DNA of 49,301 bases, taken from UHGV virus genome UHGV-0103780. One strand, given 5' to 3'. The stretch comes from a virus. The translations under genes and the position numbers were made by a program. How positions within the stretch are numbered: the first letter of the stretch is position 1; every line of letters begins with the position of its first letter. Below, in pieces: positions 26,154 through 26,769 of the stretch. Under the pieces are notes generated by a model. It saw nothing but the letters and a program-made list of their open reading frames with translations. It did not search any database and was not told where the DNA came from.

Positions 26154-26486
26154 TTAGTTACCGCTGATAGCGCGGTTGTAATCATTAACGTTGCGATTCT
26201 TCCTGTTAATCCCCATCAGCATCGTTTCTGTATCGAGGATATACGCTGGCAGATCATCAAAATATTCACTGCTAAACTCTGGCATCCTGCACATAAATGC
26301 ACTTTTTGGGGCAGGGTGGTTAACCTTTGTCGGCGTCGGCGTTAAATTCGCTGATCGACTCCCGGAGCAACCGCTGAGTGTCAGCAGGAATACGCTGGCG
26401 AACATTACCCGCCGCAACAAGTTGTTTCTGAACTTCAGCTTTTCGTTCCATTTGCCTGTCAGCATACTTGGCTTGTTCTGATTCAT
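26154..26486 (-). CDS. lipoprotein (Mlp-like; candidate o-spanin)
   Basis: Lipobox LTLSGC after a hydrophobic signal; Pro-rich mature part; start overlaps the 3' end of the TM/coiled-coil gene. Real start probably the internal Met near 26405. Confidence 0.5.
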   Translation of the reverse strand: MNQNKPSMLTGKWNEKLKFRNNLLRRVMFASVFLLTLSGCSGSRSANLTPTPTKVNHPAPKSAFMCRMPEFSSEYFDDLPAYILDTETMLMGINRKNRNVNDYNRAISGN

Positions 26487-26769
26487 TTTTCACTTCCTGG
26501 CTGTGAAAATGTTGCTCTGCTTTGTTCATCGTCTCAATGGTCTGGTTAAGATCCATTATTGACTTATCACGTTCCTTAACAGCCTGATCAAGACTGCCAA
26601 TTTTCTCCATGGCTTGCTTTAGCTGATGACGTTCCCACGCAAACCCAGCACCAACAAGTGCGCAAATCAGAACAAGAACACCAGTAGCAGCAAGTTTCTC
26701 CTTCAAAGACAAAGCTGTTTTTAATGTAGAAAAGAATGACATGTCTTCCTCCTGAAGAAAAATTATCAA
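26320..26769 (-). CDS. membrane-anchored coiled-coil protein (PpfA-like; candidate i-spanin), 149 aa
   Basis: N-terminal TM segment ATGVLVLICALVGAGFAW followed by a charged helical region; 3' end overlapped out of frame by the lipoprotein gene. Confidence 0.5.
   Translation of the reverse strand: MIIFLQEEDMSFFSTLKTALSLKEKLAATGVLVLICALVGAGFAWERHQLKQAMEKIGSLDQAVKERDKSIMDLNQTIETMNKAEQHFHSQEVKNESEQAKYADRQMERKAEVQKQLVAAGNVRQRIPADTQRLLRESISEFNADADKG

Follow-up and report, generated by a model that had tools for sequence, protein, structure and literature searches.

The ppfA and mlp genes of a P1-like phage-plasmid

Two overlapping open reading frames (ORFs), ppfA and mlp, are located on the minus strand of the virus genome UHGV-0103780, between positions 26154 and 26769 of the window, which is the whole 49.3-kb stretch of DNA that was analysed. 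These limits agree exactly with those given in a preliminary description of this DNA, in which the strand was not stated. In megablast searches, the region 25500-28000 is 99.6% identical at the nucleotide level to Punavirus P1 MH422554 and 95.8% identical to the reference P1 genome NC_005856. The window belongs to a P1-like phage-plasmid that is nearer to MH422554 and SJ46 than to reference P1, and other P1 hallmarks are present within it, such as gpR, sit, genes 21-23, parAB, the C4 antisense RNA and tRNA genes. In NC_005856, the counterparts of the genes at this locus are upfA, mlp (gp063), ppfA (gp064), upfB and upfC, with repA, oriR and incA on one side and the C1-controlled dmt operon on the other. 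The coordinates of the genes and of the features within them are collected in Table 1.

Table 1. Genes and sequence features at the ppfA/mlp locus of UHGV-0103780 (positions refer to the window)
Feature	Position	Strand	Remarks
upfC	27579..27863	minus	PAAR spike-tip protein; first gene of the same-strand string; Pfam PAAR, phrog_281; P1 cryo-EM (PMC12810830)
upfB	26782..27570	minus	Baseplate 'tripod' protein; likely ATG start at 27570 (MLEKDYQ, Shine-Dalgarno AGGAG); maximal ORF to 27627
Shine-Dalgarno AGGAGGA of ppfA	26747..26753	minus	4 nt before the ATG at 26742; also given in SpaninDB
ppfA (P1 gp064)	26320..26742	minus	Predicted i-spanin, 140 aa; N-terminal transmembrane segment and helical periplasmic domain; phrog_89
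PpfA transmembrane segment LAATGVLVLICALVGAGFA	26638..26694	minus	Codons 17-35; 19-residue Kyte-Doolittle value 2.35; inside AF2 helix 13-110
Shine-Dalgarno AGGAAG of mlp	26493..26498	minus	Within ppfA codons Q-E; 6 nt before the mlp ATG
Dual-coding overlap	26320..26486	minus	167 nt; PpfA residues 86-140 and Mlp residues 1-55 (+1 frame)
mlp (P1 gp063)	26154..26486	minus	Predicted o-spanin lipoprotein precursor, 110 aa; phrog_30284, phrog_456; hhalign to P2 LysC
Lipobox LTLSGC	26367..26384	minus	Mlp residues 35-40; codon of acylated Cys40 at 26369-26367; LTLSAC in JK004 and L086
Mlp Cys66 codon	26289..26291	minus	Only periplasmic Cys of the pair; aligns with P2 LysC Cys (FMCRMP / SLCPMP)
upfA	25750..26142	minus	phrog_1453; starts 11 nt after the mlp stop
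Terminator-like GC hairpin, then T-run	25721..25737	minus	13 nt after the upfA stop; consensus match only

PpfA is 99-100% identical to P1 PpfA and differs from the reference P1 protein in one residue (M45 for I45). Mlp likewise differs from its reference counterpart in one residue (L23 for W23; 99% identity to gp063). The start codons, the overlap and the neighbouring genes are alike, and the locus is an allelic variant of the P1 genes that is set apart from them by nothing material. More distant versions of the locus are found in the Cronobacter phage JK004 (59% PpfA identity) and in the IMG/VR locus L086, a 94-kb P1-like contig (approximately 30%), and in both the gene order upfC-upfB-ppfA-mlp is kept.

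The membrane protein PpfA

In the preliminary description, a protein of 149 aa was reported with one N-terminal transmembrane helix and a charged helical periplasmic part. The topology holds but the length does not, as 149 aa corresponds to the maximal ORF (26320..26769), which opens with a TTG at 26769, upstream of the Shine-Dalgarno sequence, and contains nine extra codons. The true start of ppfA is almost certainly the ATG at 26742, resulting in a protein of 140 aa, because the sequence AGGAGGA is present 4 nt upstream and because this start is common to reference P1 and SpaninDB. The hydropathy maximum of PpfA falls on residues 17-35, and no second hydrophobic segment is present. The single N-terminal transmembrane domain, with the rest of the protein placed in the periplasm in a type II topology, is the arrangement that defines an i-spanin. 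The remainder after the transmembrane segment consists of 104 aa, of which 36% are charged, and contains no Cys. The AF2 model, made from an 11-sequence alignment (mean pLDDT 72), predicts a long helix (residues 13-110), a break at residues 111-119 (AGNVRQRIP) and a second helix (120-138).

Among the PHROG profiles, PpfA matches phrog_89, 'Rz-like spanin', with an E value of 1.2e-25. A Pfam scan of PpfA and Mlp (E<=0.1) returned no spanin family and only sub-threshold coiled-coil noise, and a sequence search of the PDB with PpfA gave no match.

The lipoprotein Mlp

The signal sequence of Mlp is composed of a basic n-region, the h-region VMFASVFLLTL and a lipobox with cleavage before Cys40. The lipobox LTLSGC had already been pointed out in the preliminary description and was recovered using a regular expression combined with hydropathy (LLRRVMFASVFLLTLSG followed by CS); it is also in agreement with the LipoP cleavage at position 39 given in SpaninDB. 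The residue at +2 is Ser, i.e. no inner-membrane retention signal is present. The basic n-region, the hydrophobic h-region, the lipobox Cys and a residue other than Asp at +2 make up the outer-membrane lipoprotein signal that is expected of an o-spanin. In a heuristic search for lipoboxes in a signal-peptide-like context, the mlp site was the sole match across the six frames of the window, with a mean of 0.13 matches in shuffled sequence.

The signal peptide of 39 aa is unusually long, and the mature protein has 71 aa. An alternative start at Met28, which would give a short signal peptide, was considered and rejected, as some P1-like loci have Val at this position and JK004 and L086 lack the residue. 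Because Met28 is not conserved, and because the ATG of codon 1 and its Shine-Dalgarno sequence (AGGAGG in JK004, AGGAAG in L086) are kept in position, the 39-residue signal from Met1 stands.

The mature region had been described as Pro-rich. This is true of its N-terminus, a Pro/Thr-rich stretch (TPTPTKVNHPAP) in which four of the six Pro residues fall within the first 22 positions, but not of the region as a whole, where the six Pro in 71 residues amount to 8%, compared with 24% in lambda Rz1. The AF2 model of Mlp, which is of low confidence (pLDDT 55), suggests that a disordered Pro/Thr linker leads into a helix at the C-terminus (residues 86-108). Mlp matches the PHROG spanin profiles phrog_30284 (2.6e-77) and phrog_456 (2.8e-5). 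Cys66 is invariant in the alignment (A2) and supplies the pair with the periplasmic Cys that is present at least once in one subunit of 507 of 528 spanin systems (Kongari et al. 2018, PMC6139136). By analogy with Cys29 of lambda Rz1, Cys66 probably forms a homotypic disulfide.

Overlap geometry and selection on both frames

As the preliminary description claimed, the lipoprotein ORF starts inside the 3' end of its partner in another frame and runs beyond it. Relative to ppfA, the mlp gene is in the +1 frame; it starts at ppfA nucleotide 256, with a 167-nt overlap and a further 166 nt past the ppfA stop. In a two-component spanin, the o-spanin gene is expected to lie next to the i-spanin gene, to be nested in it or to run across its 3' end, and mlp has such a position. 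The exact arrangement, with 140 aa for PpfA, a start at +256, 110 aa for Mlp and the lipobox, is present in 78 of 80 P1-like IMG/VR loci. In JK004 and L086, a +1 ORF of 109-110 codons is found at the homologous position, and its ATG, Shine-Dalgarno sequence and lipobox (here LTLSAC) are kept. The Mlp motifs AFMCxMPxF, DDLPxYILD and GINRKNxNVNxYN are conserved in both as well.

Evolutionary constraint is observed on both frames. Among 53 distinct sequences, the variable sites in the segment that is coding for mlp only are distributed 3:3:16 over the mlp codon positions, a pattern that reveals purifying selection on this frame. In comparison with JK004, the same part of mlp contains 19 synonymous-only codons and 12 replacements. 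In the overlap, the variable sites of the 53 sequences are distributed 5:4:12 over the ppfA codon positions, from which it follows that the overlap is mainly under PpfA constraint, with the n-region of the Mlp signal free to vary.

Relationship to known spanins

The P1 pair is already present in the spanin literature. SpaninDB (Kongari et al. 2018, PMC6139136 Table S1) contains the row 'P1, NC_005856.1, ovl', in which gp064 and gp063 are the OIS and OOS, with the same start codons as found here. In this table, the overlapped i-spanin gp064 has 140 aa, 104 of them periplasmic, and no periplasmic Cys ('one in TMD'), and the overlapped o-spanin gp063 has 110 aa with a signal of 39 aa, a mature part of 71 aa, the lipobox TLSG and one Cys. 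The comments in this row include 'Too long signal sequence', give position 39 as the cleavage site called by LipoP and state that Prosite gave no match. The RefSeq product name for gp063 is 'Rz-like spanin'. Bednarek et al. 2022 named ppfA and mlp as the P1 spanin genes and, as cited there, the pair was first assigned as a spanin by Summer et al. 2007. Judged from the protein sequences, PpfA is the transmembrane protein and Mlp the lipoprotein, which is opposite to the i/o labels in the sentence of Bednarek et al. 2022, where these are swapped. The P1 spanin pair has been known and catalogued since 2007/2018, and its occurrence in this genome is an ordinary find. With 99% identity to gp064 and gp063, the two proteins fall within the P1 PpfA/Mlp spanin family (SpaninDB 'P1'; phrog_89/phrog_30284).

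The best NCBIfam matches of the two proteins are those of a cognate pair, LysB and LysC of phage P2, although the curated cut-off is reached by neither: PpfA scores 19 bits against LysB (TIGR03495; cut-off 92.75) and Mlp 14.7 against LysC (NF038368; cut-off 27). For Mlp, the relationship is also apparent in BLASTP (37% identity to P2 LysC over 68 aa) and in profile comparison (hhalign probability 94.4%, E=9e-8), where the lipobox Cys and the Cys of the C-x-M-P motif (FMCRMP/SLCPMP) are in register. On the strength of this similarity, Mlp is a distant homologue of the P2 o-spanin LysC. No homology to the P2 i-spanin was detected for PpfA, with an hhalign probability of 1% against LysB and no BLASTP match. 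Neither protein could be placed in the Rz/Rz1 family of lambda, since the BLASTP comparisons were not significant and no Pfam Rz or Rz1 match was obtained.

P2 LysB/LysC is the prototype of the overlapped spanin architecture, and its gene geometry is nearly identical to that of ppfA/mlp. In P2, lysC starts at lysB nucleotide 280 in the +1 frame, overlaps lysB by 146 nt and extends 145 nt beyond it, where the corresponding values for the present pair are 256, 167 and 166. The two systems differ in the length of the lipoprotein signal (39 aa in Mlp, approximately 20 aa in P2 LysC) and in their genomic location, as lysBC is part of the lysis cassette and lies behind the genes for holin and endolysin, while the P1 pair is unlinked to the lysis genes of its phage. 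Lambda Rz/Rz1, the experimentally characterised paradigm, shares with PpfA/Mlp the combination of a type II helical inner-membrane protein and an outer-membrane lipoprotein encoded in the +1 frame, as well as the single periplasmic Cys in the o-spanin that is available for a homodimer disulfide. However, Rz1 is wholly embedded in Rz, whereas mlp runs past ppfA; Rz has two periplasmic Cys, whereas PpfA has none; and mature Rz1 has only 41 aa, whereas the 71 aa of mature Mlp include a predicted C-terminal helix. In T4, the spanins PseT.3/PseT.2 are encoded by separated, non-overlapping genes. The T4 i-spanin, like PpfA, has no periplasmic Cys and leaves the disulfide to the o-spanin (PMC6139136), but PseT.2 needs two Cys where Mlp has one.

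The overlapped i-spanin/o-spanin reading that was proposed in the preliminary description is supported by the 'ovl' row in SpaninDB, the PHROG matches of both proteins, the homology to LysC and the conserved +1 lipoprotein frame. The locus is very probably the ppfA/mlp locus of a P1-like (Punavirus) phage-plasmid, encoding a predicted two-component spanin with the 'overlapped' architecture.

Genomic neighbourhood, lysis genes and expression signals

The genes upfC, upfB, ppfA, mlp and upfA form a same-strand string that adjoins oriR, with short gaps between upfB and ppfA (39 nt) and between mlp and upfA (11 nt). The hairpin after upfA is a probable 3' end of the transcription unit. The products of upfC and upfB have been observed as parts of the virion baseplate (P1 cryo-EM, PMC12810830), which makes upfC and upfB late genes. 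Because these two genes encode virion parts and are located on the same strand with tight spacing, we infer that ppfA and mlp are expressed late together with them.

The lysis genes of the phage are found elsewhere. Lyz, LydA, LydB, LydC and the LydD-region ORF were not detected in the 49-kb window by tblastn. In MH422554, lyz is located at 13.8 kb, lydAB at 23.3-24.1 kb and the ppfA/mlp pair at 57.2-57.8 kb, so that the pair is approximately 43 and 33 kb away from them. A location within a lysis cassette, which is usual for spanin genes but does not define them, is not seen for ppfA/mlp. The preliminary description had held that a position far from any lysis function would speak against a spanin. 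Taken literally, this is the situation in the window, but it does not refute the reading, because such a distance is a known peculiarity of P1 and of T4: dispersed lysis genes have been documented for P1 (Bednarek et al. 2022), and the T4 spanin genes are likewise unlinked to those of holin and endolysin (PMC6139136).

Two types of expression signals were searched for. The late-promoter box of P1 was taken from the annotated LP23 (AAGTGACTT-TCAA-TAAAAT), and no Lpa-type late box (AAGTNACTT-N3-6-TANNNT) with at most one mismatch was found within 2.5 kb upstream of upfC; exact matches occur only at 20871-20889 and 1528-1546. A scan with the sigma-70 consensus gave no convincing minus-strand promoter for upfC-upfB-ppfA-mlp-upfA. 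The P1 record contains two sigma-70 promoters for ppfA, which are predictions and weak.

When plated in the laboratory, phages can often do without their spanins. P1 plaquing was not reduced when mlp or ppfA was knocked down by CRISPRi (EOP 0.2-1.3), and in the same study lambda Rz was scored essential with one of two reported values. The missing plaque phenotype is compatible with a conditional spanin requirement and offers no positive support for it.

Alternative explanations

In a different reading, the pair has no connection with lysis and is an envelope module, consisting of a surface-modifying prophage lipoprotein and its membrane partner, or a membrane-piercing helper of UpfC/UpfB. The first variant could exclude superinfecting phages or mask a receptor, as lipoproteins of the Cor/Llp type do. 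Such a module would fit a position next to the plasmid maintenance region (repA/oriR 24530-25600), behind the baseplate spike genes and away from the lysis genes, and it would fit with the knock-down result and with the original P1 annotation, in which mlp and ppfA are only named 'membrane lipoprotein precursor' and 'possible periplasmic function'. In addition, sigma-70 promoters are the only ones predicted for ppfA in P1, with no Lpa late box nearby; these promoters are weak, however, and none was found on the minus strand in the consensus scan. Against this reading, all spanin-defining sequence features are present in the pair, Mlp is similar to P2 LysC in a manner that indicates common ancestry, and PHROG spanin profiles match both proteins. 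Moreover, exclusion lipoproteins are normally without a +1-overlapped type II membrane partner, and the paper on the P1 virion proteome makes no mention of ppfA or mlp. This reading is improbable.

It is likewise improbable that the pair is not, or not solely, a dedicated lysis spanin and has a second role in the envelope, such as exclusion or membrane remodelling. For this role, the genes might be expressed along with the UpfC/UpfB spike-tip apparatus or from weak constitutive promoters in the lysogen. Such a role is compatible with the position by oriR, with the missing Lpa late box and with the unimpaired plaquing after knock-down.

That mlp is not a gene, and that its 110-codon +1 ORF, lipobox included, arose by chance from the sequence of ppfA and the downstream spacer, is extremely improbable: several public annotations omit mlp or call a fragment, and the window contains many alternative-frame ORFs of 90 aa or more, but this idea is already refuted by the conservation of the ORF, ATG, Shine-Dalgarno sequence, lipobox and C-terminal motifs down to approximately 30% PpfA identity, as well as by the third-position bias, the surplus of synonymous-only codons over replacements against JK004, the uniqueness of the lipobox site in the window and the LysC homology.

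Proposed mechanism of PpfA and Mlp

As a two-component spanin, PpfA would be inserted in the inner membrane through its N-terminal transmembrane helix in a type II orientation, with a mostly alpha-helical domain of approximately 100 residues extending into the periplasm. Mlp would be exported, lipidated on Cys40 and freed from its 39-residue signal peptide, after which the Lol system would deliver it to the outer membrane, into the inner leaflet, because Ser and not Asp occupies the +2 position. By their C-terminal parts, the two proteins would then join up across the periplasm, passing through the meshes of the peptidoglycan, and a disulfide in a Cys66-linked Mlp homodimer would probably stabilise the complex. 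Once the SAR-endolysin Lyz, released by the holins LydA/LydC/LydD, has destroyed the murein, the complexes would be free to collapse and fuse the inner and outer membranes, which would remove the final obstacle to the release of virions. While the identity of the genes, the topology signals, the overlap and the constraint on both frames are shown by the present analysis, the formation of a complex, the disulfide and the fusion of the membranes are proposed by analogy with lambda Rz/Rz1 and T4 PseT.3/PseT.2 (PMC6139136).

Distribution and public annotation of the pair

A profile HMM of PpfA, run against 1.84 billion representative proteins, returned P1-like sequences and fragments, together with two or three remote full-length matches (P0102, P0108, P0120) and long coiled-coil proteins that are spurious. 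No locus for P0108, one of the remote relatives, was found among viral, genome and metagenome contigs. In a tblastn search of 50,697 phage records, PpfA was found in P1-like phages and the Cronobacter phage JK004 only, and ppfA is carried by only three species-representative genomes. From the P1-like results and the few remote matches in the profile search, it follows that the PpfA family is lineage-restricted.

The public annotation of this locus is inconsistent, and these inconsistencies are documented here. The 'Rz1' of MH422554 (57202-57342) and gene_24 of JK004 cover a fragment of only 44-46 aa of mlp, and in OP279344 mlp is missing, in addition to the swapped i/o labels in one paper. The overlapped spanin was recognisable to a reader from the raw sequence alone.

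Annotation of the predicted spanin pair and upfB

Public records disagree on the annotation of mlp, the gene for the predicted o-spanin lipoprotein. In the Punavirus P1 record MH422554, only a C-terminal fragment has been called (57202-57342; 2155-2295 of its extracted locus, L002), under the label 'Rz1', and the same is true of gene_24 of Cronobacter phage JK004 (3458-3592 of locus L083), which is labelled 'hypothetical'. These called fragments are 44-46 aa in length and carry no signal peptide, and the family phrog_15803 'lipoprotein' (46 aa) has been made from C-terminal fragments of this kind. 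In the P1 record OP279344, mlp is left out of the annotation, and the i-/o-spanin labels of the P1 pair are interchanged in Bednarek et al. 2022.

Fusions of Mlp to the predicted i-spanin, PpfA, are also found in public assemblies, for the most part in Logan (database proteins P0003, P0010, P0039 and P0041; 193-195 aa). They arise by single-base frameshifts at several distinct points within the overlap of the two genes (26320-26486), and one joint, representing 31 member sequences from 6 contigs, lies exactly at the A5 run ahead of the mlp ATG (..EVK/MNQ..). The fusions may be homopolymer sequencing errors or genuine slippage variants.

A PpfA 100% identical to that of the window is encoded on a 5.9-kb contig described as 'MAG: Bacillota bacterium' (JAFAFU010000017.1), which is most likely a P1-like contig mis-binned into a Bacillota metagenome-assembled genome.

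The start of the baseplate tripod gene upfB in the maximal open reading frame, as in the reference P1 annotation, is probably 19 codons too early, because the ATG at 27570 (MLEKDYQ) is accompanied by the Shine-Dalgarno sequence AGGAG, matches the UpfB N-terminus in JK004, MH422554 and the IMG/VR P1-like contig L086, and agrees with the PHROG profile match, which begins at residue 20 of the maximal frame. In the intergenic region upstream of upfC, no recognisable promoter was observed for the string upfC-upfB-ppfA-mlp-upfA, neither an Lpa late box nor a sigma-70 consensus.

Coordinates of additional features in the window
Feature	Position	Strand	Remarks
upfB, maximal ORF	26782-27627		281 aa; as in reference P1 annotation
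upfC (-) / uhr/hrdC/dmt (+) intergenic region	27864-28030		C1 operator Op68 and Pdmt
ORF	9965-10777	-	phrog_14355, unknown function
ORF	10752-11087	-	phrog_14329, unknown function
C4 antisense RNA with a1/b1 targets (immI)	11396-11602	+	
sok antitoxin RNA	15059-15233	+	Rfam RF01794, strong match (114.9 bits)
Three tRNA genes	32150-32303 and 33931-34006	+	Asn-GTT, Thr-TGT, and a third called Met with the anticodon CAT

Variable cassette and RNA genes

The segment 9808-11321, which adjoins the immI/C4 region, does not align to MH422554, and its flanks are 97-99% identical. It contains the two minus-strand ORFs of the table. At this place MH422554 has one gene for a membrane protein and one for a lipoprotein, and the segment is therefore a variable cassette. 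The C4 antisense RNA with its targets and the three tRNA genes are standard P1 features. Downstream of repL, the sok RNA marks a hok/sok-type addiction module, and 'MokW' is annotated at the equivalent place in MH422554.
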